Positions 8,356 to 25,284 are shown, counted from the first letter of the stretch. The stretch: DNA of 64,000 nucleotides from a virus (IMGVR_UViG_3300029288_000060:192001-256000); one strand, 5' to 3'. The notes: generated from the letters alone by a model not told the origin. Translations and numbers: made by a program.

Positions 8356-9342
8356 TTATTTACCAGTTAATTGTTTATATTTTTGTAATACTTGTATTAT
8401 TTCAAAAATCATACTTAATAAATTCATATTTGGTAATAAACAATCTGGATGACTATTACTATATTTATTAATAATAATTTTAGCTGGAGCAGGTACGTTA
8501 TTTCTGAAAAATAAATCAGAATATATTGTTCTATAATCTAAATCTAATTCTCCAAGAAACTTTACAATATTGTTCATAACTCCATTAATCTTATGATCTT
8601 CTTTAGTTTGAATAAAATTTATAATTTCCACTATATTACTAATTATAGTCTTTTCAGTAGACAATGTTATATTTCTATCTGTTACTAATTTTCCTGTTAA
8701 GGAACTTTTTTGCATTGTATTAACAATTCTTCTGATGTCTGGATATAAACTATCAATAATAAATTTAAGGTCTTTTTCTTCAAAAGTTATTTTTTCTAAA
8801 TCTAAAATATTTTTACAATAACTAAACACAAATTCAACTGGCATTTGTTTAAATACATAAGGTTGACATCTAGATTGAACAGCATCTTCAATTTTAGATA
8901 CATAATTACAAGTTAAAATAAATCTACTATGAGTAGAATATTTTTCCATTATATGACGCAAAGATTTAAAACTAGCATCAGTTAATTGGTCACTTTCATC
9001 TATAAATACAATTTTATATAAGTCTGGATTAGCTGGAGGTATTTTCAAATATTGTTCAACTACATCTTGAATAAAAGTTATCCCTCTGGATTCTTTTGAA
9101 GAACCATCTACTTCTAGAACATTGTCATTTTTATTTTCAATAATTCCATTCTTAGAAGTCAGAATTTGAGCAATACATGTTTTTCCAGAACCTGGAGGCC
9201 CAGATAATAATAAATGGGGTATTTCTCTTCTTTTGATACATGCTTCAAAATCCATTTTATATTTTTCAGGTAAAACAAGTTCTTCTAATTTTTTTGGTCT
9301 GTATTTTTCTACCCATAAACTATTCACAATATTTTGATTCAT
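8356..9342 (-). CDS. clamp loader AAA+ subunit (RFC small / T4 gp44-like)
   Basis: LWVEKYRP, GPPGSGKT, FIDESD, SRC motif. Confidence 0.95.
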   Translation of the reverse strand: MNQNIVNSLWVEKYRPKKLEELVLPEKYKMDFEACIKRREIPHLLLSGPPGSGKTCIAQILTSKNGIIENKNDNVLEVDGSSKESRGITFIQDVVEQYLKIPPANPDLYKIVFIDESDQLTDASFKSLRHIMEKYSTHSRFILTCNYVSKIEDAVQSRCQPYVFKQMPVEFVFSYCKNILDLEKITFEEKDLKFIIDSLYPDIRRIVNTMQKSSLTGKLVTDRNITLSTEKTIISNIVEIINFIQTKEDHKINGVMNNIVKFLGELDLDYRTIYSDLFFRNNVPAPAKIIINKYSNSHPDCLLPNMNLLSMIFEIIQVLQKYKQLTGK

Positions 9343-12922: not shown

Positions 12923-13375
12923 CTATACATTTTTTAAAAATTTATTTTTTATGTAAAGTTCTTTTGTGTAACCTATAGCATCTTTCATCCTTTTAAATTT
13001 TTTTACTGATTGTCCACCATTAGTAGATATATTACCTTTTGAATCCCAATAAAATTTATATAACTGAAGGCCAAAATATTTGCTATTTTTAAATCGATAA
13101 ACTATTCCAATTACATGATTATGTAAGTAGATCAAGTGCCTTCCATTAGGAAATAATTTAGTAGTTATATCATTATCACTTGTTGCTTCCATTAAGTTTT
13201 TATGTTTGGTATTTATAGCCTCATTCTCTGGCGGATCTTCAAGATCAGGAATACCAAATGTATGTATATTTTCATCTATAGTTAAATCAAAACTGTCTAA
13301 TGCTTCTAATAAATTAACTTTATGTGCAAATTCATTTATTCCGTCTTCTCCATGCCTTTTTACTTTATTTTTCAT
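12923..13375 (-). CDS. hypothetical protein (N-terminus paralogous to 21037-21327)
   Basis: KRHGEDGINEFAHKVNL. Confidence 0.65.
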   Translation of the reverse strand: MKNKVKRHGEDGINEFAHKVNLLEALDSFDLTIDENIHTFGIPDLEDPPENEAINTKHKNLMEATSDNDITTKLFPNGRHLIYLHNHVIGIVYRFKNSKYFGLQLYKFYWDSKGNISTNGGQSVKKFKRMKDAIGYTKELYIKNKFLKNV

Positions 13376-13559
13376 GAATTTCCAACTCCGAAATAAGTTT
13401 TGATAGAGTTAAAAATTCTTCTCCTGTAAGGAAAAAAGAATTACACCTAGTTAAAGTAGGGTGATAAGAAACTATGTATCCTCCTGTCCCAGTCTTTAGA
13501 ATAGTGAATTCTTTTAACTCATATAAAGATTCAATTGTATCATATTTATTTATACTCAT
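13365..13559 (-). CDS. hypothetical protein
   Basis: 64 aa ORF with AGGAG RBS. Confidence 0.6.
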   Translation of the reverse strand: MSINKYDTIESLYELKEFTILKTGTGGYIVSYHPTLTRCNSFFLTGEEFLTLSKLISELEIHEK

Positions 13560-13706
13560 TATTTCTCCTTTTTTACCATTTAATATTTAATAATGCTAAA
13601 AGAGACGCACAAAACCATGCAATGGCCGCGTCATAATTTTTCCTTTTGATGTATAATACAAAATTAATAAGTATCAAAAGCAATGCTATAATATCAAATG
13701 CCATCA

Positions 13707-14018
13707 TTATTCCTTAGCCCATTCAGCAGTATCCAACAAAGCATGAATAGCATCTATAACATATGCCTTATCTTGTTCTGGTGCTATAGTTGACCGAATG
13801 GCTAACACCAAGCGTTCCAACTCTGTTTTGTCATCTGATCCAATTATTTGAATAAGAGCTCTTCTGAGTTTAAGTATTGCCTCTTCAGCTTTTCGTAATG
13901 GATGTTTTTTACAAATTCTAATATGATCAGTAAGAACTTGAATATCAGCACCACTTGCTGGCGTTCCTGCTGGATATTCTTCACCACAATATACACATGT
14001 TAAAATATTATTATCCAT
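13707..14018 (-). CDS. hypothetical zinc-binding phage protein
   Basis: CVYCG...HIRIC; AGGAG RBS. Confidence 0.7.
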   Translation of the reverse strand: MDNNILTCVYCGEEYPAGTPASGADIQVLTDHIRICKKHPLRKAEEAILKLRRALIQIIGSDDKTELERLVLAIRSTIAPEQDKAYVIDAIHALLDTAEWAKE

Positions 14019-14111
14019 ATTATTACTCCTTTTTATTTCACTGCTCTAATCTATTTAAAAACTGGCTAATTAAAGCACTTAAAACTCCGAAGCAAATAGA
14101 GATTACGATAC

Positions 14112-14546
14112 CTATAATGTCTGACATTTCTTCTGTTCCTCAACTTTTAATTTCTTCAATTCATAATGTTTACATTCTCCAGGATTTGAAGGAAGTTTAA
14201 AAGTCGTATAAACTTCCCATTCTCCTTTTGCACACCAATATCGCATTCGTGTATGTAGAAAATGTTTACAAGTAGGACAATTTCTAATTGGTATTCCTTC
14301 ATTAATAACTTCAAATTTAAGTAAAAAGTTTGATGCCGCATATCTTGTCTTGAATCCCTCAACCAAACCAATTGATTGTGGGAGTCTATGTAGTGCACTC
14401 CAGCCCTTATTTTTAAAGAAAAATAATTGTCCTATATAAATATCCCCGATATAAAATAAAGTGTCAGTTTTTCTCTTCTTCCATTTCCAATCTAAAACTT
14501 TACCCTCTATTACTGACGATAACTTCAAACCATGCCTCCTTCGCAC
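14112..14546 (-). CDS. hypothetical protein
   Basis: 144 aa ORF with a Cys-rich C-terminus. Confidence 0.6.
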   Translation of the reverse strand: MRRRHGLKLSSVIEGKVLDWKWKKRKTDTLFYIGDIYIGQLFFFKNKGWSALHRLPQSIGLVEGFKTRYAASNFLLKFEVINEGIPIRNCPTCKHFLHTRMRYWCAKGEWEVYTTFKLPSNPGECKHYELKKLKVEEQKKCQTL

Positions 14547-14703
14547 ATTCAGGAAAAGGAATAAACAATTTACTTAATGTACTACCAGTAGAATAATCAA
14601 TTTTAAGTTCCGCATTGATTACTAAGTAGCATTTGTTATTGCGGGAAATTTTGATTTTATCTTCAATATTACCTATTTTTTCAACATACAAAAATTCTTT
14701 CAT
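14500..14703 (-). CDS. hypothetical protein
   Basis: 67 aa ORF tiling the operon. Confidence 0.5.
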   Translation of the reverse strand: MKEFLYVEKIGNIEDKIKISRNNKCYLVINAELKIDYSTGSTLSKLFIPFPECAKEAWFEVIVSNRG

Positions 14704-14728
14704 ATTCTCTTTTTATTCCTTCGCCCAT

Positions 14729-14971
14729 TCAACCTAAATCTACCAAAATCCTTCGAATTAACTCTGGTATACTCTTTTTCCTTATATCCACTCCACGGTC
14801 CATACTTTCGCAAGCCTCAGCATACATCCAGCCGATAGCTTTGGCTCGAACGTCCTCAACATACTTTTCAAGTTCATCATAAGCCTTGCTTGTCGGATAA
14901 ATGCCACAATCTCCTTCGTTGTCCAACATCTCACTTATAATCTTGCATATTACAGTTCTATCCTTATCCAT
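14729..14971 (-). CDS. hypothetical protein
   Basis: 80 aa ORF with GAGG RBS. Confidence 0.65.
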   Translation of the reverse strand: MDKDRTVICKIISEMLDNEGDCGIYPTSKAYDELEKYVEDVRAKAIGWMYAEACESMDRGVDIRKKSIPELIRRILVDLG

Positions 14972-15158
14972 TTGTTTCCTCTTTTTTATGTCGTTGTTAG
15001 ATTTAAGTAAATATACATCATCAGATTAAAAAACTTTATTATTAGAATAATAATACTCGTTATAGTTACTACTAACCATACAGGAGTTACCCACCAATCA
15101 TCATCATAGTTATCTTTTGAAGAGCACATTATTCCTTCTTTTTTCTCTGGTACTATCT

Positions 15159-15548
15159 TCACTTTACCTCCTTTGTCCATTCAGCTTTTACTTTACCTTC
15201 CCCATAAGGAAGTTCATACCATTGCTTTTCTAATCCTATAGATTCTAAGTCTGAAACAAGACCAACTCGAACAAGACAAAAATCTTTTACATGCTTTGTT
15301 CCACAAGTAATAAAAGGTAGAATATAAAACCCTCTTATTTTGCCATCTATTGTAATATTCTGAAAATCCTTTAACTCTTCGTTTGTAAGATTTAAAACTA
15401 CTTCGTGATAGTTCCACGATTTTTCTTTGACAGTATTATTAGGAATCAAGTTGAATATTCTACAGAACCACTTTTCAATTCTATTGCGTGGTGTTGGCAC
15501 AAATATGTCTTCATAAGTATACCAACTAAATAAATATTGGTGTTGCAT
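15159..15548 (-). CDS. hypothetical protein
   Basis: AGGAGG RBS before MQHQYLF. Confidence 0.6.
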   Translation of the reverse strand: MQHQYLFSWYTYEDIFVPTPRNRIEKWFCRIFNLIPNNTVKEKSWNYHEVVLNLTNEELKDFQNITIDGKIRGFYILPFITCGTKHVKDFCLVRVGLVSDLESIGLEKQWYELPYGEGKVKAEWTKEVK

Positions 15549-15550
15549 TT

Positions 15551-16060
15551 TTATTCCTCCTTTGCCCATTTAGCGACGATACGGCCTGTACCGTTGCAAT
15601 TTTGACAATAGAATTCATTTTTATTAACACCATAGGGCGTAACATCCCCTTTGCCTTCACATTCAGGACATTCCTCCCATCCCCATTTCTCTCTTGTTTC
15701 TGGCAGTGCCAACCATTCGGAGAGTAAGACCATGATGCGTGGTTCGCCTTCGTCGGTGAGGGAGAAGAGCCATATATAATTGCTTTGTATTGTGAAAGGT
15801 CTTTTATCGGTATCAAACCAACGTTCCCACTGCCAACCGCCGAACGCTTCCCACATCTCCCTCTTCTCCTTCCAAAACCACTGCAAGAAGGGGAGGTGGG
15901 TGTTGGGGGAGGAGTAGTCGGGATTAGGATTGAAAAAGTTTCTTAGTTCAATTTTCTCTCCACATTTAATACAGCTTGTATATCCTTTCTCTGTCAAATA
16001 TGGGAATGGTTCATGAAAGCACTTCCCTTCAAACAAGCACAACAGTTTATGGTTTATCAC
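15551..16060 (-). CDS. hypothetical protein with DnaJ-type zinc finger
   Basis: GTG start (INHKLL) after AGGAG; C-terminal CPECEGKG and CQNCNGTG. Confidence 0.65.
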   Translation of the reverse strand: MINHKLLCLFEGKCFHEPFPYLTEKGYTSCIKCGEKIELRNFFNPNPDYSSPNTHLPFLQWFWKEKREMWEAFGGWQWERWFDTDKRPFTIQSNYIWLFSLTDEGEPRIMVLLSEWLALPETREKWGWEECPECEGKGDVTPYGVNKNEFYCQNCNGTGRIVAKWAKEE

Positions 16061-16272
16061 TTTTTTATCTCCTTTGTAGGAAACTTGCAGTCTGTCATCC
16101 AATTTCCCCATGAAGAAATGATAGGAACACCACCTTGTGCAATACAAGCGTTTATAGACTTCCTTCTTGCATCGGCATATTCCTGATCTGAAATTGTGTC
16201 GGTAGGACTACAACCCACTAAAAGAATTGCAACCAAAACAAGTATTGAAAATAAGAGTTTATGATTTATCAT
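16057..16272 (-). CDS. small lipoprotein
   Basis: MINHKLL... LLVGC lipobox; AAGGAGG RBS. Confidence 0.7.
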   Translation of the reverse strand: MINHKLLFSILVLVAILLVGCSPTDTISDQEYADARRKSINACIAQGGVPIISSWGNWMTDCKFPTKEIKK

Positions 16273-16327
16273 CTTGACCTCCTTCGAGAGCATACAGAAA
16301 TATTATAAGTCTATACAATCTCCAATT

Positions 16328-16759
16328 TTATAGTAGTTTTTGAGTTACTTCCTCATGCTCACAGTTTTCACACTCATAAACATACCACCATTCTGTAACC
16401 GCTCCAGTTCTTGAATCGTAATCACCTTCTCTTTTAAATTCCAATTTTTTCTTATATTTATGTTTACATTTTTTGTGAACATTGAGCGACTTAATCACAC
16501 GGCTAAGACACTCACATAACTCTGTACATTGTTCTATTTTTTGCATTGGGCAATCTGAACAGTCCATTTTATATCGGTATCTTGCAATATCTTTTAGTTT
16601 ATCCCACTTCTCGGCCTTCTCGATGGTGGGGGCAAGGAGGGAGAGGATAGAATCAGCAACTTTATCTGCATCATAGTCACATTCACAAGAGGACATATAA
16701 TCTTTCTGAAAGCCACTATGGGCTATGGTACATATCTCTCTTTTCAGTTCATCCTTCAT
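16328..16759 (-). CDS. mosaic Cys-rich hypothetical protein
   Basis: KDEL, ADSILS and EKAEKWDKLK modules plus CxxCP. Confidence 0.7.
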   Translation of the reverse strand: MKDELKREICTIAHSGFQKDYMSSCECDYDADKVADSILSLLAPTIEKAEKWDKLKDIARYRYKMDCSDCPMQKIEQCTELCECLSRVIKSLNVHKKCKHKYKKKLEFKREGDYDSRTGAVTEWWYVYECENCEHEEVTQKLL

Positions 16760-16770
16760 CTCTCATCTCC

Positions 16771-17034
16771 TTAACATAGTGGGCATTCATCTATCCCGCC
16801 AAGTTTGCCGTGAATGGGACAGTCGTATTCCTCGATAATCTTAAAGCCTTCCACCTCATTGTAAACCACATATCTTGCCTTCTCATCCTCAAGGGGACAC
16901 CAAGCGGGGATACCTTCTTTTTCAACTATCTGGTCAGTACCCATGCACCTGTCGATAGTGGTAGTTCCGTCCCCCGCCAATTCTTCATACGACCACGGAC
17001 ATTCCCCGCAGTTCTCAACCTTGATTATTTTCAT
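16771..17034 (-). CDS. mosaic Cys-rich hypothetical protein
   Basis: MKIIKV and CPLEDEK modules; AAGGAGG RBS. Confidence 0.7.
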   Translation of the reverse strand: MKIIKVENCGECPWSYEELAGDGTTTIDRCMGTDQIVEKEGIPAWCPLEDEKARYVVYNEVEGFKIIEEYDCPIHGKLGGIDECPLC

Positions 17035-17035
17035 C

Positions 17036-17323
17036 TTAACCTCCTTCGAGAGCTTCGACGATACTCTTTGCATATACACAAAGTACCTCTTCGCATGTTA
17101 TCAGGGGGCAGGTATCGCACGTTCGAGTATTTCTCAACGCCGCTATCTCCTTCACCTTATCCCACTTCTCGGCCTCCTTCTCATCCTCAAGGGGACACTC
17201 TTTAGGAATGACATTACTATCAATAACTCTGCCTGTTACTCCGCATCGTTTTATCCCAAACACTATCAGACCGTTGTTAATTTTAGGACAATCGAAACAG
17301 CTTCTAACCTTGATTATTTTCAT
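17036..17323 (-). CDS. mosaic Cys-rich hypothetical protein
   Basis: MKIIKV, CPLEDEK, AEKWDKVKE and IVEALEGG modules. Confidence 0.7.
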   Translation of the reverse strand: MKIIKVRSCFDCPKINNGLIVFGIKRCGVTGRVIDSNVIPKECPLEDEKEAEKWDKVKEIAALRNTRTCDTCPLITCEEVLCVYAKSIVEALEGG

Positions 17324-17693
17324 CTTGACCTCCTTCGAGAGCTTCGACGACATCCCTGAATATACAACCACCGTACTCCAAGGTACAGGCATCTTCTTTC
17401 CATAAAGGGCATTTGCACGGTGGTCTTGAATCTGCACACTCCTTCACCTTATCCCATAGGCGAGCCTTCTCGATGGCAGGATCAGGGTGTTGAATATCAG
17501 AAAGTATAGCTTTTGTCAACATTTCTTTTAGTTCTGGTTTAACATCGTCCATAAAGAAATGTAACCAGCGTTTTACTGTTTTTAATTCTTGTTGTGTCTT
17601 CTCAGCTTTCTTTAACTCAATCCTTATTTCATCAAGGATAGCACCGTTTTGAAAGTCTTCTATTTTAAGTTTATCAAACTCTTTAACTGTCAT
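17304..17693 (-). CDS. mosaic hypothetical protein
   Basis: EKARLWDKVKE and VVEALEGG modules. Confidence 0.7.
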   Translation of the reverse strand: MTVKEFDKLKIEDFQNGAILDEIRIELKKAEKTQQELKTVKRWLHFFMDDVKPELKEMLTKAILSDIQHPDPAIEKARLWDKVKECADSRPPCKCPLWKEDACTLEYGGCIFRDVVEALEGGQDENNQG

Positions 17694-17874
17694 TCTTGTA
17701 CCCCTCTTCGTGGTCTTCTGTTGACAATGAAAACCATCTAACTTGACTCAAAGGAATATGTCTATTTGTCCCGTTCGACAATCGCATCCATAAAAGATAA
17801 GCTCCAAACCGCACTTCGGAGCATTCAAATACTTCTCTGTAACCGTCCCACCACCTTACATTAACTGTTTTCAT
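17683..17874 (-). CDS. hypothetical protein
   Basis: 63 aa ORF with AAGGAGG RBS. Confidence 0.65.
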   Translation of the reverse strand: MKTVNVRWWDGYREVFECSEVRFGAYLLWMRLSNGTNRHIPLSQVRWFSLSTEDHEEGYKNDS

Positions 17875-18194
17875 CCCTTACCTCCTTCGAGAGCATCGTT
17901 AATATCTTTGCAGACGGCACCAGGGTACAAATGGGAACCGCAGATATAATTCAGGAAGCACTTGTCACATGAGGTTTCGAAGAGGGATTTTAGTTTATCC
18001 CACTTCTGAGCCTTCTCCCGCGTCTCGTTATCCTCTGCACCCGCCAGTTTTATAATCCTGTCAGTATGGGCTTCGGATAGTTTTTTCTCAAGTTCTATAC
18101 ACTCAGGGCACTCAATCCATGCCCTAACTATAAGTCTTTCGGGTACTTCGTTTGATACTTGTTTGCCACATTTCGAGCATTTAACGTGACTCAT
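17871..18194 (-). CDS. mosaic Cys-rich hypothetical protein
   Basis: Zinc ribbon plus EKAQKWDKLK and ALEGG modules. Confidence 0.7.
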   Translation of the reverse strand: MSHVKCSKCGKQVSNEVPERLIVRAWIECPECIELEKKLSEAHTDRIIKLAGAEDNETREKAQKWDKLKSLFETSCDKCFLNYICGSHLYPGAVCKDINDALEGGKG

Positions 18195-18489
18195 CTTTCA
18201 CCTCTATAAGAGCTTCTTCAAGTATCTGAATAACAGGAGTAGCCGATTTTACCATTGCTTCTTCTCTATCTGTTCCAACATCTCTTGCAAAGAAATGGAA
18301 CCATACTTTCACGGATTTCAATGTCTCTTTCATCTTCTCAGCCTTCTCAAGTTCGGGGGCAAGGATTGAGACGATTGAATCTGCAAACTTCCTTCCTTCG
18401 GATAGACAAAGAAGAAAGTCCCAATATTTTCCGTAACGATATTTTGCATAGAGTTCGGCTATCTTCTCTTTCAGTTCATCTGTGTTCAT
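18181..18489 (-). CDS. mosaic hypothetical protein
   Basis: DELKEKI, ADSIVSILAPELEKAEK and EEALIEVKD modules. Confidence 0.7.
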   Translation of the reverse strand: MNTDELKEKIAELYAKYRYGKYWDFLLCLSEGRKFADSIVSILAPELEKAEKMKETLKSVKVWFHFFARDVGTDREEAMVKSATPVIQILEEALIEVKDESR

Positions 18490-18574
18490 CTTTATATTCC
18501 TCTAATTTAAAATTTTAAAAAGTATCGTGTAAATTATAGCGAATATTGTAATCCATATGATTAAGACTCTTATG

Positions 18575-18796
18575 TCAAGCATTTTTTATACCTTGCCAAA
18601 ATTTTTCATATTTTTCTTGTACAGTACCGTTTCTTACGTCCTCTGGAAGATTCATATAATTAGGATAATCCTTAAATAAAATTATCTCCGGCCAAGAGGA
18701 CAGGTCTGTAACCTTCCAAACTATTATCCCGATTCCATTCTTAACTATTTTGACGGCTTTCTTTCTATTCTTATAGGTCAATATTTCATTAAACAT
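18575..18796 (-). CDS. hypothetical protein
   Basis: 73 aa ORF coupled to the upstream gene. Confidence 0.6.
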   Translation of the reverse strand: MFNEILTYKNRKKAVKIVKNGIGIIVWKVTDLSSWPEIILFKDYPNYMNLPEDVRNGTVQEKYEKFWQGIKNA

Positions 18797-19046
18797 CTTT
18801 CACTTCGAGAGCTTCGACAAGTATATCCATCATGCAACGCCTACGTCGATCACAATAACGTTCAATAGGACACTTCACATTCTCCAACCCTACAATACAT
18901 GCGTTTTCCTCTATCTCCTTCACCTTATCCCATAGGCGAGCTTTCTCTTGGAGTCCTTTCAATTCCCTATCATCAATCATGGTCATATTCATGCTAGTCA
19001 TCTTTCTTGCCCCCTTCAAGGTTTTGTACAACCATATAACAAGCAT
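18789..19046 (-). CDS. mosaic Cys-rich hypothetical protein
   Basis: EKARLWDKVKE and LVEALEVKD modules; start probably internal (MTSMN). Confidence 0.65.
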   Translation of the reverse strand: MLVIWLYKTLKGARKMTSMNMTMIDDRELKGLQEKARLWDKVKEIEENACIVGLENVKCPIERYCDRRRRCMMDILVEALEVKDV

Positions 19047-19362
19047 CTATCAAATCATAATTGTTGTATGTTTTTCTCGCGTTATCATCTACGGGAATGT
19101 TTGCTATTCGCTTTACACTATTCCATTTTTCAGCCTTCTTAAGTTCAGGGGTAATGATGGAGAATGTTTTATCGACAATAAGATTTGTCAGTTTTTTTAC
19201 TCTGGCGCGGAAGAGGGGGTCGGTATTAAATCTGCCAATAGCATATTTTTCTTTGTTGTTTATTACATTTGCGGTAGTTGTACTTAAGTATACCGGGTAG
19301 AAAAACTGGTCGAGCAAAATGGTCGTAATGTACTGTATTTCATGAAATAGTTCATCCTTCAT
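18994..19362 (-). CDS. mosaic hypothetical protein
   Basis: MKDEL, PELKKAEKW and NLEGG modules. Confidence 0.7.
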   Translation of the reverse strand: MKDELFHEIQYITTILLDQFFYPVYLSTTTANVINNKEKYAIGRFNTDPLFRARVKKLTNLIVDKTFSIITPELKKAEKWNSVKRIANIPVDDNARKTYNNYDLIDACYMVVQNLEGGKKDD

Positions 19363-19714
19363 CCTTCACCTCTATTCGTTTACCACACTTATGACAGAAA
19401 GTATAACCTTCATAAAATTCAAACATACCACATGAAGTTATATATACGTCTTGACCATGTATTTGCCAATCATCCTTTGTCCACACGCATCTCTCAGCGT
19501 TGACAAGGGAGAGAATGCGGTCAGCAACTTCGTATTTATCCCAATATGGTGGGTCGTAACATCCTGCTTCGCTTGCTATTTCCTCTCTCAGTTCATCCTT
19601 TACTTGGTTTTCTTGTATCTTTTCCAAGAAGGTCTTACCATGCTTGAGGTAATATTCTTCATCCTCTTCCCTAATCTTTTTTACTTCTTCAATAGCTTTG
19701 TTAATGTTGTTCAT
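19352..19714 (-). CDS. mosaic hypothetical protein with zinc ribbon
   Basis: KDELREEI and VADRILS modules plus CVW..TSCG..CHKCG. Confidence 0.7.
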   Translation of the reverse strand: MNNINKAIEEVKKIREEDEEYYLKHGKTFLEKIQENQVKDELREEIASEAGCYDPPYWDKYEVADRILSLVNAERCVWTKDDWQIHGQDVYITSCGMFEFYEGYTFCHKCGKRIEVKDEG

Positions 19715-20243
19715 CTTCCTCCTCCAAATACACTAATGCTGGATGCTTTCTTGTGCCGGAGCCGTGACAGGTTGAACATTTTTTACCATTAATCTGTAAA
19801 CTATTGATTGTACCATCATCCATTATCACACCACACTTAGGACATTTCTTTATTCCCCACTCCCGATACTTTGAAAGATAGTTAATGAGATTATCCATAT
19901 TAAGTTGAGCGTTGAGTTGACCAATAAATGAATTTGTATCATCGTTTGCATGACAAGTCATATGAGCCATTTCCTCAAGATAAGATTCCCACACCTCCGG
20001 TAATTCCCGTTCCATATATTTCTTAACATAACCGAATTTATCAAGAGAAGAATCAGAATAAATTTGACTATAGTTCATGTTGACAAGCTTGGCTAAAAAC
20101 ATATCCTTATCCATATTTGCCTCTTTTCTCCTTTGTTTTTTCCTCTTATCTCTTTTAAGTTGACACATGATACACGTCGCTCCATCATAAAAATACTTTT
20201 TACAAGTATTATCTGGGCAACAGATAACAATATCATTTTTCAT
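19701..20243 (-). CDS. hypothetical zinc-finger protein
   Basis: CPKC...CSTCHGSG; may start internally at MDKDMF. Confidence 0.6.
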   Translation of the reverse strand: MKNDIVICCPDNTCKKYFYDGATCIMCQLKRDKRKKQRRKEANMDKDMFLAKLVNMNYSQIYSDSSLDKFGYVKKYMERELPEVWESYLEEMAHMTCHANDDTNSFIGQLNAQLNMDNLINYLSKYREWGIKKCPKCGVIMDDGTINSLQINGKKCSTCHGSGTRKHPALVYLEEEDEQH

Positions 20244-20485
20244 GGATTATCCTCATAAACATGCTTCCAATAACCCCCGCACCACGTAGATGGTTTATAC
20301 CATACGATTTTAGTGAATATCCAGTATTTTCTGTAAATCAATTCTCCGATTGTTTCATCATAAAATGTCCCGCCACATTTGGGACAACACGTTCCTTCTA
20401 TTGGGACAGCGATTTTGCATTTCAGACACCCTCTTATACTAACATAATGTTCATACATGATTATCTCCAAGACCGCAGAAACCAT
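20240..20485 (-). CDS. hypothetical zinc-ribbon protein
   Basis: CLKC...CPKCG. Confidence 0.55.
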   Translation of the reverse strand: MVSAVLEIIMYEHYVSIRGCLKCKIAVPIEGTCCPKCGGTFYDETIGELIYRKYWIFTKIVWYKPSTWCGGYWKHVYEDNP

Positions 20486-20750
20486 GTCTGTCGGGTTTTA
20501 TTCTTGAGTACTCTATAGTGGCCGGGCTTATATTGTTTTTTGACCATCCATCTTCTTCACAACATGGAGTAGGTCTATCATACGTAATTTCTATTTCAGG
20601 TTCAGACCATTTCCACAACTGACAATCAGAAGCATCACATTTGATTTCATCCATTTTGTTAATTTCAGATGGAAGATAAAAGTTTGGAATTGTTAACACT
20701 GCCGCTTTGTACTTTGGACATATTGTCTTTCTTGCCTCTTCTTCAGTCAT
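20451..20750 (-). CDS. hypothetical protein
   Basis: MTEEEARKTICP...CDASDCQLWKW...GFCGL. Confidence 0.65.
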   Translation of the reverse strand: MTEEEARKTICPKYKAAVLTIPNFYLPSEINKMDEIKCDASDCQLWKWSEPEIEITYDRPTPCCEEDGWSKNNISPATIEYSRIKPDRHGFCGLGDNHV

Positions 20751-20954
20751 TTATTCCTCGCTTGGTAAATGAATCATACCAACCTGATATCTTTTTTGGC
20801 ATCTCCTACAAACTGTATATAATTTAGCATGTCTTCTTCCAATACCATCCGTAATATATTCTTCAACTTCAAAATATCTATTACAATCTCCATCTATACC
20901 ATCACCATAATAACCAGGTTCAGGCCTATGACCAAATAATTTACAAAGAATCAT
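20751..20954 (-). CDS. hypothetical protein (LCKLFGH...CRRC type)
   Basis: 67 aa ORF with AGGAG RBS. Confidence 0.65.
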   Translation of the reverse strand: MILCKLFGHRPEPGYYGDGIDGDCNRYFEVEEYITDGIGRRHAKLYTVCRRCQKRYQVGMIHLPSEE

Positions 20955-21036
20955 TTTTTCACTCCTTTTTTATCTTCATATAACTTATTAATTTCTATTT
21001 CTCCTAAGATTTATATATCCCCCAAAAAATATCAGT

Positions 21037-21327
21037 TTATTCACTTATAAAAGATCCTTTCTTACGATATTTACTGTTATTTGTAAAAAAATCCCCTGGA
21101 TAGCTAGTCCCGTCGTCATAAGGAATACCGATTGCATTACGAGTTTCAATCGCATTTAATTCGAGAGTTGTTTCATTCAGCGCTTCTCTTATCTCTGATT
21201 CAGGATCTTCAATCAAAATAGACCATTTACCCCCTTCGTCTGCTACCTGATCTAGATTGACATTATGAGCAAATTGATTAATATCTTCTTCTCCATGTCT
21301 TTTTAGTCCTTTCTTTTTATTTTTCAT
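21037..21327 (-). CDS. hypothetical protein (paralogue of the 12923-13375 N-terminus)
   Basis: KRHGEEDINQFAHNVNL. Confidence 0.65.
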   Translation of the reverse strand: MKNKKKGLKRHGEEDINQFAHNVNLDQVADEGGKWSILIEDPESEIREALNETTLELNAIETRNAIGIPYDDGTSYPGDFFTNNSKYRKKGSFISE

Positions 21328-21341
21328 ATTTCTCCCACCTT

Positions 21342-21755
21342 TTAATTTCTAGAATCAATTAAAATAAAATTTTCTATACTATTTTTTGGTATATGAAAAC
21401 TTAAAATAACTCCTGAATTTTTATGTATTTTAAACACTCTTTCAACAGAAGAAAATGGTGCACTACTGGTAAGAGTCATAGTTACATATGATTCAGTTAT
21501 AGAATTTACATCCTCATAAATCTGACAATATTTTGAGTTTACAATTCCGAAATTAGCTGCTCCATTTTTAATATAAATAAATTTTATTAAAATTTCAAGA
21601 GTTGAAGATGAACTTCCAAGAAATTGACCGTGACTTAAAACTTTTGATGTATTATTTATTTGTTTTAATGGGTATGTCTCCGTAGCAGTTTCTTGACACC
21701 CAACTAAAAAAATACCACACAATACAAAAATAATCATGATTGTTTTAATTTTCAT
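21342..21755 (-). CDS. putative lipoprotein
   Basis: Signal peptide with FLVGC lipobox. Confidence 0.7.
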   Translation of the reverse strand: MKIKTIMIIFVLCGIFLVGCQETATETYPLKQINNTSKVLSHGQFLGSSSSTLEILIKFIYIKNGAANFGIVNSKYCQIYEDVNSITESYVTMTLTSSAPFSSVERVFKIHKNSGVILSFHIPKNSIENFILIDSRN

Positions 21756-21805
21756 CTTTCACCTCAAATTTCATAATTACTCCTTTAGCCTTACTTAGGT
21801 ACTCC

Positions 21806-23314: not shown

Positions 23315-23713
23315 TTATTTCCCAGTTGCAAGGTCTACGTCTGGAACTATTATCTGTGGACGGAAAATAACCTTGTAGTGATAAACATTCACTGGAGCTT
23401 CTTTTAATTGTTCAGCAAAATAGGTCACATTATCCGAAAGACCAAGATAATGTTTCTTATACTCTGTATTTGATGTTTTACACGTTACGGTAACAACCCT
23501 TTCACTAGCTCTTATATCAATTGAACATCTTCCTTCTATTGAAAGCATATATTCTTTTTGTATAGAGTTATAAAAAACAATACGTCGTTCTATTTGAAAT
23601 TGGTCTGCTGCAACAGAAATATTATGTGAAGCCACGTCTGCTTCTTTTGAACATCCTACAAGCAGAATAATACAACTTATTAATAATAACATCAACTTTG
23701 CTAAAATTTTCAT
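23315..23713 (-). CDS. phage lipoprotein
   Basis: LLVGC lipobox; EADVASHNIS...RRIVFYN...YKKHYLGLSDNVTY. Confidence 0.75.
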   Translation of the reverse strand: MKILAKLMLLLISCIILLVGCSKEADVASHNISVAADQFQIERRIVFYNSIQKEYMLSIEGRCSIDIRASERVVTVTCKTSNTEYKKHYLGLSDNVTYFAEQLKEAPVNVYHYKVIFRPQIIVPDVDLATGK

Positions 23714-24045: not shown

Positions 24046-25284
24046 TTAAACTATCAACATTAATTTTTCTTTAGCTCTGGTACATGCAGTATATAACCAT
24101 TTTTTCATATACTCATCATCCCAATAATAACTTTTTTCTAAAAAACAAATAACTTTTTTAAATTCGCTTCCTTGACTCTTATGAACACTAATACAATATC
24201 CAAAATCACAAACATCAATTGTATTTGTATTCACATTCTTCATAGTTTTTTTATTCTTCTTTATAAGTTCTGGTAACATACTTAAAGAATCTTGATATTG
24301 TTCTTTTCCAAAACACCCATTATAAACTAAACCTGAGTAAGTTCCTTCAGTATTATCTAACTCTATTGTCATATTATAAATATTTTTTGCTTCATATAAT
24401 AAGAATAAGTTTTTTCCTATCATGCCATTAAAAACTTTTGAATTGTAATTATTTTTTAAAAAGATAACTCTTTCACCTGGGTATGGTTCTGGGTTAATAA
24501 ACCCTAATTTATCTCTTATTAATTGATTTACACTTACCCTTGTTTTATTTAAACCACATAATATAATCATGTCTTCATCAACAAAATTTAAATTATCAAA
24601 AATTTGTTTACATTCTTTTGAATTCCAAGAAATTTTAAAAATACCCTTATTGTTTTTATCATAAAAACCCATTGGAATATCTTTACCATTTCTTATATCC
24701 TGTGATAATCTAATTATTGGATTATCTAATGCTTGTCTCATGATCTCTGTTAGTAGGTAATCAGGTTTTTTCATTAAATTAAATTGTTCTCCTACCGGAG
24801 GAAGTTGACCATGATCACCTACTGCTATAATTGGTATTTCATATTCAATTAAATCTCTCCAAATTTCCCTATTAACCATAGAAGCTTCATCGATAAAAAT
24901 TAAGTCATATGGAATAAAATCTTTCTTAATCCAATTAATTACTACCATTTTATGAATATTTTTATCATATCTTAATTCTGGTTTATAAATTAAACTATGT
25001 ATAGTTCCAACAAAATCCCCTTCAAAAATAGCATTATTTTCAACCAACTTACTTTTTAAAACACTTGATGCTTTACCAGTAAACGTTGCAAAAGCTACAT
25101 TTGTATTTTTAAATTTATCTTCTATTTCATTTCTAATTATTGAAATTAAAAAAGTTTTTCCAGTTCCTGCTAATCCACCAATTGTTATGTATTTAAAATC
25201 AGGTAAGATATTTGATTTACTTAATGATACACCAAGTCTATCCATAACTTTCTTAAATACATAATTCTGATCATTTGTTAACAT
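24046..25284 (-). CDS. SF1B DNA helicase (Dda/RecD2-like)
   Basis: GLAGTGKT, FIDEASMV, GDHGQLPPV, SVHKSQGSEF, YTACTRAK. Confidence 0.92.
   Translation of the reverse strand: MLTNDQNYVFKKVMDRLGVSLSKSNILPDFKYITIGGLAGTGKTFLISIIRNEIEDKFKNTNVAFATFTGKASSVLKSKLVENNAIFEGDFVGTIHSLIYKPELRYDKNIHKMVVINWIKKDFIPYDLIFIDEASMVNREIWRDLIEYEIPIIAVGDHGQLPPVGEQFNLMKKPDYLLTEIMRQALDNPIIRLSQDIRNGKDIPMGFYDKNNKGIFKISWNSKECKQIFDNLNFVDEDMIILCGLNKTRVSVNQLIRDKLGFINPEPYPGERVIFLKNNYNSKVFNGMIGKNLFLLYEAKNIYNMTIELDNTEGTYSGLVYNGCFGKEQYQDSLSMLPELIKKNKKTMKNVNTNTIDVCDFGYCISVHKSQGSEFKKVICFLEKSYYWDDEYMKKWLYTACTRAKEKLMLIV

Follow-up and report, generated by a model that had tools for sequence, protein, structure and literature searches.

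Genes of the array and the repeats beneath them

The stretch of DNA analysed here (the window; 64,000 nucleotides, C1:192001-256000) belongs to a 268,812-bp virus record in IMG/VR (IMGVR_UViG_3300029288_000060). At positions 15551-19714 it carries an array of 13 minus-strand open reading frames (ORFs) that abut or overlap, and this array, with the way in which its genes came to share modules, is the subject of the present analysis. The original prediction had described a run of short, adjacent ORFs, GC-richer than their flanks, that reuse a common set of protein modules. That description holds: 11 of the 13 ORFs have modules in common, g17683 and g18575 being unrelated fillers, and the array stretch is the GC peak of the record in the GC profile, reaching 41% against a record mean of 27.8%.

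Pairwise BLASTP and alignments resolved the proteins into a layout of head, hinge, optional middle module(s), hinge and Cys-rich tail. Head A (MKDELK..ADSILSLLAP) is found in g16328, g18181 and g19352 and partially in g18994; head C (MKIIKV..CPLEDEK, with two Cys pairs) in g16771 and g17036; and middle D in g17304 and g18181. The Cys-rich tail, usually ending ALEGG, is shared by g16328, g17036, g17304, g17871 and g18789 and is degenerate in g18994. Over shared modules the paralogues within the window are 27-46% identical, and no paralogues of the array proteins were found elsewhere in the genome.

Taken from high to low coordinates, all on the minus strand, g19352 (19352..19714, 120 residues) joins an A-like head (VKDELREEI..VADRILSLV) to a CxxC tail and ends EVKDEG. 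It is followed by g18994 (18994..19362, 122 residues), which has a long head (MKDELFHEIQYITT..) of the type also present in the related proteins P0012 and P0071, a KKAEKW hinge and a Cys-poor tail ending NLEGG. The next gene, g18789 (18789..19046), encodes a short head, an EKARLWDKVKE hinge and a Cys tail ending EALEVKDV; its start is likely at 19001, giving P0017 (70 residues). g18181 (18181..18489, 102 residues) consists of head A, an EKAEK hinge and middle D, lacks a Cys tail and ends EVKDESR; pairwise BLASTP gives 43% identity to the g16328 head and 39% to the g17304 middle. g17871 (17871..18194, 107 residues) has a CxxC..CxxC head, an EKAQKWDKLK hinge and an SCDKCFLN-type tail ending ALEGGKG, 74% identical to that of P0018. 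The most elaborate layout is that of g17304 (17304..17693, 129 residues), with an MTVKEFDKL head, a KKAEK hinge, middle D, an EKARLWDKVKE hinge and an RPPCKCPLW-type tail ending VEALEGG.

The remaining genes begin with g17036 (17036..17323, 95 residues), in which a zinc-ribbon-like head C is followed by an EAEKWDKVKE hinge and an RTCDTCPL-type tail, again ending VEALEGG. g16771 (16771..17034, 87 residues) shares head C, 46% identical between the two, up to CPLEDEK and then continues into an unrelated C..H..C..C tail. g16328 (16328..16759, 143 residues) combines head A (MKDELKREI..ADSILSLLAP), an EKAEKWDKLK hinge and a Cys tail with an extra C-terminal CxxC extension. g16057 (16057..16272, 71 residues) is a small lipoprotein-like protein with a MINHKLL.. 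start and an LVGC lipobox, and its matches to lipoprotein families are sub-threshold; its 55-nt 5' leader (16273-16327) looks like the decayed relic of a tail ending ALEGGQD. Three small predicted lipoproteins with a signal peptide ending LVGC lie in this one variable region, at 16057-16272, 21342-21755 and 23315-23713 (minus strand). The last array gene, g15551 (15551..16060, 169 residues), starts at a GTG overlapping the g16057 stop (GTGA), shares the MINHKLL start and ends AKWAKEE after a DnaJ/anti-TRAP-like CxxCxGxG tail.

All of the module motifs named in the original prediction are present and rest on direct DNA repeats, as it had claimed. A repeat search gave 27 direct-repeat families, and no meaningful inverted repeats, only weak inverted pairs at chance level. 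The array contains 83 repeated 14-mers, compared to 0.09 in shuffles and a median of 1 in same-size windows of the genome, and the junction motifs are nearly confined to the GC-rich island around it. With 16-mers and longer, the single such window that scores higher holds a simple tandem repeat, a short tandem duplication at G000:C1:94246-94375, outside the window.

The repeats fall on the joints between modules and between genes, all on the minus strand. DNA encoding the EKAEKWDK-type hinge recurs as a 33-nt repeat in five copies (16589-16621, 17147-17179, 17439-17471, 17985-18017 and 18915-18947; families D1, D2 and D6), with partial copies at 18334-18364 and 19126-19150. The CPLEDEK joint is an exact 23-nt repeat at 16878-16900 and 17176-17198 (family D10). 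A gene-boundary cassette (..GAAGCTCTCGAAGGAGGTYAAGATGAAAA.. at 17317-17350; others at 17017-17061, 16266-16291 and 17869-17894; families D3 and D4) encodes EALEGG together with a ribosome-binding site and a start codon, its copies (at 16266, 17028, 17317 and 17869) being 26-65 nt long and 85-96% identical. A second such cassette, GAGGTGAARGATGAA, combines EVKD, a ribosome-binding site and ATG (19359-19375; others at 18191-18207 and 21751-21765; family D19). At these gene joints, the last codons of the upstream gene provide a GGAGG-type ribosome-binding site 5 nt ahead of the next start. The codon sets used are GCTCTCGAAGGAGGT for ALEGG and GAGGTGAAGGAT for EVKD, with AKWAKEE as a further gene end; the AKWAKEE codons of g15551 contain the AAGGAGG site of the next gene. 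Outside the array, g13707 (13707-14018, minus strand) has the C-terminus ..DTAEWAKE, of the AEWAKE type seen in g15551 and in P0025, so that this family of gene-end cassettes reaches left of position 15551.

One hinge copy had been singled out as a crossover product. The site at 17147-17179 does combine the left arm of the copies at 17439 and 18915 with the right arm of the copy at 16589 around TTATCCCA. As the window has only three of the four arm combinations that could exist, the site is suggestive of a crossover and does not amount to proof of one.

Reassortment of modules among related proteins

Searched against 1.84 billion proteins, a profile built from the six tails retrieved 82 representative clusters; the tail is C-terminal in every match, and the proteins have 62-201 residues. 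Word-based searches yielded further close relatives. To test for reassortment, we cut each protein at its hinge and clustered the resulting segments. Ten head types are paired with at least two different tail types, and 14 tail types with at least two head types, a single tail type occurring with 11 heads, and for 3 heads and 2 tails all six combinations are present. The g17304 tail is likewise 76-89% identical to the tails of 11 metagenomic proteins that bear other heads. Identity shifts at the last hinge, from 92-100% on one side to 24-48% on the other. P0009 and P0067 are 92% identical up to the hinge and 29% identical after it, as are P0012 and P0071 (96% and 31%) and P0025 and P0029 (100% and 24%), and the shift runs the other way for P0009 and P0012 (38% and 100%) and for P0067 and P0071 (48% and 98%).

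Mosaics extend to middle modules and to the second joint. P0005 carries the g16328 head (95%), another middle and the g17304 tail (83-84%), and P0002 the g16328 head, the g17304 middle and a third tail, while a single middle module, with a hinge on each side, sets P0097 apart from P0098. In P0096, a g17036-type head (82%) is joined at CPLEDEK to the g16771 tail (89%), which is the product expected from a crossover between the exact CPLEDEK 23-mers. Overall, 29% of shared-block ends lie within 6 residues of a hinge edge, compared to 17% expected, and hinge length and register are constant across all mosaics. The switches in identity between heads and tails point to recombination, since rate variation cannot yield them. 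These data support the conclusion that the genes are true mosaics, with modules reassorted by recombination at conserved joints.

The same comparisons bear on a simpler history, in which ancient tandem paralogues diverged in place, with slow and fast segments and without later exchange of modules. The low identity of the window paralogues over their shared modules is compatible with such static duplications, and several joints that skip 64-103 nt could perhaps reflect hypervariable segments between conserved ones. Differences in rate, however, cannot make two proteins 92-100% identical to one side of the hinge and leave the other side with an unrelated module whose length differs, and do so in each of the four combinations; nor can they account for a middle module that is present or absent between the near-identical P0097 and P0098. 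The array is also missing from the nearest relative of this phage, and other family-carrying phages have two family genes only. We therefore consider an origin by static duplication very unlikely.

With blastn, the array has no matches among 50,697 GenBank phages, and within IMG/VR the family occurs in only two other phages, both of 52% GC and with two family genes each: a complete 44-kb phage (L011) and a partial contig (L014). With six tail-bearing genes against two elsewhere, the array described here is the largest known for the family. In L014, a homologue of g15551 follows the family genes, as it does in the window, and the neighbourhood (L014:3141-6322; IMGVR_UViG_3300009692_000112) comprises nuclease-like and single-stranded DNA (ssDNA)-binding-like genes, the family genes, the g15551 homologue and a MazG-like gene; it is an early, replication-recombination neighbourhood. 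An alignment search with the g17304 tail added two marginal IMG/VR loci (L006 and L007) and a 1.4-kb JGI contig of 48% GC (L008) that holds one family member beside a homologue of g20451. The latter (20451-20750 of the window, minus strand; MTEEEARKTICP..ASDCQLWKW) corresponds to L008:525-872 (MTEQEAKTKWCP..ASDCMMWRK), two genes upstream of the family member. Its presence on an unrelated contig of 48% GC indicates that neighbouring small Cys-rich genes travel with the family. From the GC values of these relatives, the donor pool seems to consist of phages of 46-52% GC. In searches with DNA patterns, KWD[KR]VKEIA had no match in IMG/VR and a single weak, probably chance match among GTDB genomes, and none of the 41 IMG/VR loci matching [IV]VDALEGE carries the family. 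The family was found in landfill, groundwater, wastewater and manure metagenomes, in phages of 28% to 52% GC.

None of the window proteins or of 51 relatives has a match above threshold in Pfam, PHROG, NCBIfam or the PDB, and none of the 82 tail clusters has a name or a known relative in Pfam, PHROG or the PDB. An AlphaFold (AF2) model of a typical member, P0004, built from a 51-sequence alignment (pLDDT 83), consists of a helical hairpin, with a second helix that extends across the hinge, followed by a Cys-bearing loop and a C-terminal helix. The best VIA-align Z score for this model is 4.7, to a generic helical hairpin, and the fold searches (Foldseek against the PDB, wide VIA-align, BFVD), a PDB profile search and the ESM Atlas returned generic or chance-level rows only. 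The tails contain three invariant and one nearly invariant Cys, without a profile match, and from this conserved Cys pattern they may be zinc-binding; g15551 scores below the cut-offs of zinc-finger profiles (22.7 bits against 32.7 for PF00684 and 23.2 against 65 for anti-TRAP). The array proteins are probably metal-binding, and the zinc-binding character first proposed for them is a putative one. No toxin or immunity domains were detected.

Conservation of the joints and rearrangements in other samples

To separate conservation of DNA from conservation of protein, we scored codon identity at aligned identical residues against the identity that codon usage in the island would predict. The scores were corrected for amino-acid composition, which weakened the hinge signal relative to a crude Fisher test. 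At gene ends, 35 of 35 codons are identical where 12.6 are expected, compared to 61 of 93 (43 expected) in the hinge and 93 of 182 (76 expected) in module interiors; the pairs behind these numbers are not phylogenetically independent. DNA-level conservation is therefore strongest at the cassettes containing a ribosome-binding site and start codon and weaker at the hinge. The ribosome-binding site explains why the gene-end cassettes are frozen, and it makes them good recombination substrates all the same. A 20-nt core of the hinge, GAGAAGGCCGAGAAGTGGGA, is identical in g16328, g17036 and the 52% GC phages L011 and L014.

These results bear on whether homology is needed at all. Under illegitimate, non-homologous recombination followed by selection, joins would be random, survivors would be those at linkers and gene borders, and the motifs would be kept for the helix and for translation initiation. 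Such a process would account for a hinge codon identity only slightly above that of the interiors (observed/expected 1.41 vs 1.22), for the position of the hinge in the structurally constrained C-terminal half of a long predicted helix, and for functional GGAGG sites within the gene-end motifs. It does not readily explain why hinge length and register are unchanged in all mosaics, why phages of 28% and 52% GC share an identical 20-nt core, why an exact CPLEDEK 23-mer lies within domains that are 46% identical, or why an indel joint seen in another sample (X2, below) falls inside a shared 15-nt motif. We regard illegitimate recombination as rather improbable.

Parts of the array are present in eight public runs from six studies of landfill, groundwater, manure and wastewater, as judged from assembled Logan contigs, and not raw reads, compared with the window; the habitat names of runs with small shares of the stretch were not relied on. 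One landfill run (X1) contains 96% of the array and is probably the source sample. In other runs, gains and losses of genes break at junction motifs. In X2, position 19357 is followed directly by 21751 on a contig whose shorter side measures 220 nt; the joint falls within the shared GAGGTGAARGATGAA cassette, and seven genes are missing. In X4, 16056 and 17320 meet at a start codon (shorter side, 47 nt), which places a g15551-type gene directly behind a g17304-type tail. Contigs of X4 and X5 also diverge from the window at CPLEDEK (loose ends at 16912) and at the start codon of g16328. The tail module at 17319-17451 has a second allele, with six differences, which X1, X4 and X5 each have on a contig of its own; the gene-end cassette lies at one end of this allele and the hinge at the other, and its depth is similar. 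Between relatives, which the original prediction had proposed to compare, the modules occur in different combinations. The X4/X5 joints 17167->17605, 17435->18341 and 16648->19348 were considered as clean chimeras and, with shorter sides of 20-28 nt, were counted as weak; an X2 joint that skips the whole island (13061->21767) has 21 nt on one side and was not used.

An assembler could in principle have created the array order, or the island itself, as a chimera of co-occurring phages at short repeats. In the likely source, the Logan assembly between 16020 and 17451 stops at each junction repeat and leaves fragments of 135-355 nt that end there, and the second allele has a similar depth. Against this, the short X1 pieces can be tiled in the order of the window with 0-2 differences, a read is longer than the in-genome repeats, and the same modules recur in many independent samples and databases. 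In addition, an independent 11.8-kb X1 contig spans 17427-22000 and continues into the AT-rich core without a mismatch, showing that on that side the island is truly part of the phage. An assembly artefact is, in our judgement, the most remote of the explanations considered, and extremely improbable.

A probably acquired island, its proposed recombination and its counterparts in other phages

The record encodes a Dda-like helicase, a clamp loader and a RecA/UvsX-like gene, which together with its low GC content identify it as an AT-rich jumbo phage. It is labelled linear and approximately 74% complete (CheckV), despite overlapping ends: the first 129 nt of the contig are repeated at its end (G000:C1:1-129 and 268684-268812), so that it is probably a closed circle of approximately 268.7 kb or a circularly permuted genome. 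The GC-richer region extends from approximately 13400 to 21000 (GC profile, GC at third codon positions (GC3), and comparison with the relative L005), between the clamp loader (8356-9342) and the Dda-like helicase (24046-25284). It encodes only small proteins without known families, several of them with Cys pairs. The array genes have a GC3 of 0.33-0.51, compared to 0.11-0.15 for four core genes, which marks the island as compositionally foreign. In L005, a 180-kb contig and the nearest relative by helicase (68% identity), the helicase and clamp loader are 3.9 kb apart rather than 14.7 kb, and neither the array, nor a rise in GC, nor any small genes in common with the jumbo phage were found between them; the array therefore lies in a variable (hyperplastic) region. 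Our best reading, as part of an overall explanation that we hold to be fairly probable, is that the island was acquired horizontally and sits inside a variable region of a jumbo phage. Two AT-rich paralogues (12923-13375 and 21037-21327, minus strand), one on either side of the island, have a common N-terminus, KRHGE..IN.FAH.VNL, 60% identical over 30 residues; they could be traces of an older duplication or could delimit the acquired segment.

With respect to enzymes, a RecA/UvsX-like recombinase (G000:C1:187557-188297; 66.5 bits against PF00154, in a 491-codon open frame) lies approximately 3.7 kb before the start of the window. The whole record has no match to reverse transcriptase (RVT_1), and RecT, tyrosine recombinases and serine recombinases were not found in it either, so the absence of reverse transcriptase and integrase first noted for the locus extends to the entire record. 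A diversity-generating retroelement was rejected accordingly, the repeats being short junction motifs and not a template/variable repeat pair, as was a shufflon or invertible segment, given the lack of tyrosine and serine recombinases in this record (approximately 74% complete by CheckV, yet with overlapping ends) and junction repeats that are all direct. Recombination at the joints, as originally proposed, stands; its description as microhomology-driven does not, since patches of 15-45 nt together with a RecA/UvsX-like gene fit short-homology recombination better.

It could still be argued that the junctions are kept as signals for a specific, unrecognised factor that generates new chimeras at a high rate in the phage population. 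The conservation of every synonymous site in the gene-end cassettes (35/35), the occurrence of modules as separate graph nodes with several contexts in single samples, the likely source included, and the sheer size of this array relative to others would all fit a dedicated, active shuffling system. No candidate enzyme was found in the island, however, whose genes are all small and without known family, and the ribosome-binding site accounts for the conservation of the cassettes. As all repeats are direct, exchange within one genome would mainly delete genes, and minority rearrangements of this genome were not seen. A dedicated or currently active mechanism, which had been put forward at the outset, is thus not borne out and appears improbable to us; nor do the data favour exchange inside this one genome over exchange, on an evolutionary time scale, between co-infecting relatives.

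We think it reasonably likely, if far from certain, that the array is an accessory family of small modular proteins diversified by short-homology recombination at conserved coding junctions in an acquired island. General recombination at short conserved patches of DNA, of two kinds, would diversify the family. Inside genes, exchange at the hinge-coding DNA, with its identical 20-nt core, or at CPLEDEK would swap heads, middles and tails in frame. Between genes, exchange at the gene-end/start cassettes (ALEGG, EVKD, AKWAKEE) would swap, delete or insert whole genes and would preserve translation initiation. The homology could be used by the phage RecA/UvsX-like recombinase or by host recombination during co-infection, and selection for diversity, e.g., of early host-targeting proteins, may maintain the pattern. 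A further step would be that the hinge and gene-end cassettes are kept as recombination substrates, beyond their roles in the protein and in ribosome binding, making the island a combinatorial library of small metal-binding effectors whose heads, middles and tails pass continually between co-infecting phages and tandem copies. We consider this extension doubtful; if true, it would be a reverse transcriptase-free and integrase-free route to domain-level diversification of host-directed proteins, e.g., in counter-defence.

Several observations weigh against homology-guided exchange in an accessory family. The modest codon excess at the hinge means that protein-level constraint may account for most of the conservation there. 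The module order of relatives was read from proteins and Logan contigs, a level at which homology-guided and illegitimate exchange are not separable. Most hinge joints in other samples have less than 30 nt on the shorter side and were flagged as unreliable by the tool, and among the assembled contigs no rearranged variant of this very genome was seen. The module order between 16020 and 17451 moreover rests on metagenome assembly through a branching graph. Finally, P0004 has no fold match in the PDB or BFVD (Foldseek, E<=0.001) and no family match.

The closest counterpart is PeSL shuffling in the hyperplastic regions of T4-type phages, where small non-essential genes are bordered by a repeated motif and general homologous recombination has been proposed (Arbiol et al. 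2010, PMC2839356; Comeau et al. 2014, PMC4122927). In both cases small genes without known function lie in a cluster flanked by conserved core genes, a short motif recurs where one gene borders on the next, and insertions, deletions and replacements between relatives are bounded by that motif, as in the X2 19357->21751 and X4 16056->17320 joints. The PeSL motif, however, is a sigma70-like early promoter with a stem-loop terminator, whereas the array junction is a coding/ribosome-binding-site/start cassette between genes that abut or overlap; no promoter-like or terminator-like sites lie at the junction repeats, and their numbers (39 vs 36.8 and 5 vs 4.3, respectively) are close to the shuffle expectation. 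PeSLs also lack the second, intragenic level of exchange that the array has at the hinge.

In the T-even adhesin gp38, hypervariable segments lie between conserved glycine-rich motifs (Trojet et al. 2011, PMC3157838). The likeness is in interchangeable variable segments separated by short conserved motifs, which in gp38 form the structural core and ease exchange between relatives. There is no relationship in sequence or fold, and the units exchanged in the array are whole unrelated domains that vary in length and number; its proteins are small, non-virion members of a tandem family, whereas gp38 is a single adhesin gene. Mosaicism of temperate phages has been attributed to relaxed homologous recombination (De Paepe et al. 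2014, PMC3945230), in which, as here, unrelated DNA is flanked by short patches of similarity and a phage recombinase drives the exchange. In the 52% GC phages, the family indeed follows nuclease and ssDNA-binding-like genes among small overlapping genes. In the jumbo phage, the recombinase is RecA/UvsX-like and not Rad52-like or RecT, and exchange reaches inside genes, at the hinge. Lambdoid phages have mosaic nin-type regions of small overlapping genes. In the polymorphic toxin loci of bacteria (CdiA with its VENN motif, and Rhs), a conserved border motif allows C-terminal domains to be swapped by homologous recombination with nearby orphan cassettes. There, too, a conserved peptide or DNA motif marks the swap border of variable C-terminal domains, but the array genes are complete small ORFs rather than 5'-truncated orphans, and they belong to a phage.

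The array is a clear example of a known mode of phage evolution, by recombination at short joints, and not a new diversity machine. Phage mosaicism has usually been described for genes and gene blocks; here it is nested at two levels, whole genes and domains within proteins of 60-200 residues. As both kinds of junction are coding and one doubles as a ribosome-binding site, each exchange yields a translatable product. The protein family is in no reference library, yet it recurs across metagenomes. Should its members target host functions, they would form a natural combinatorial library and a tractable model of linker-promoted domain swapping; if they do not, the array would be a clean and testable case of short-homology recombination shaping the accessory genes of phages.

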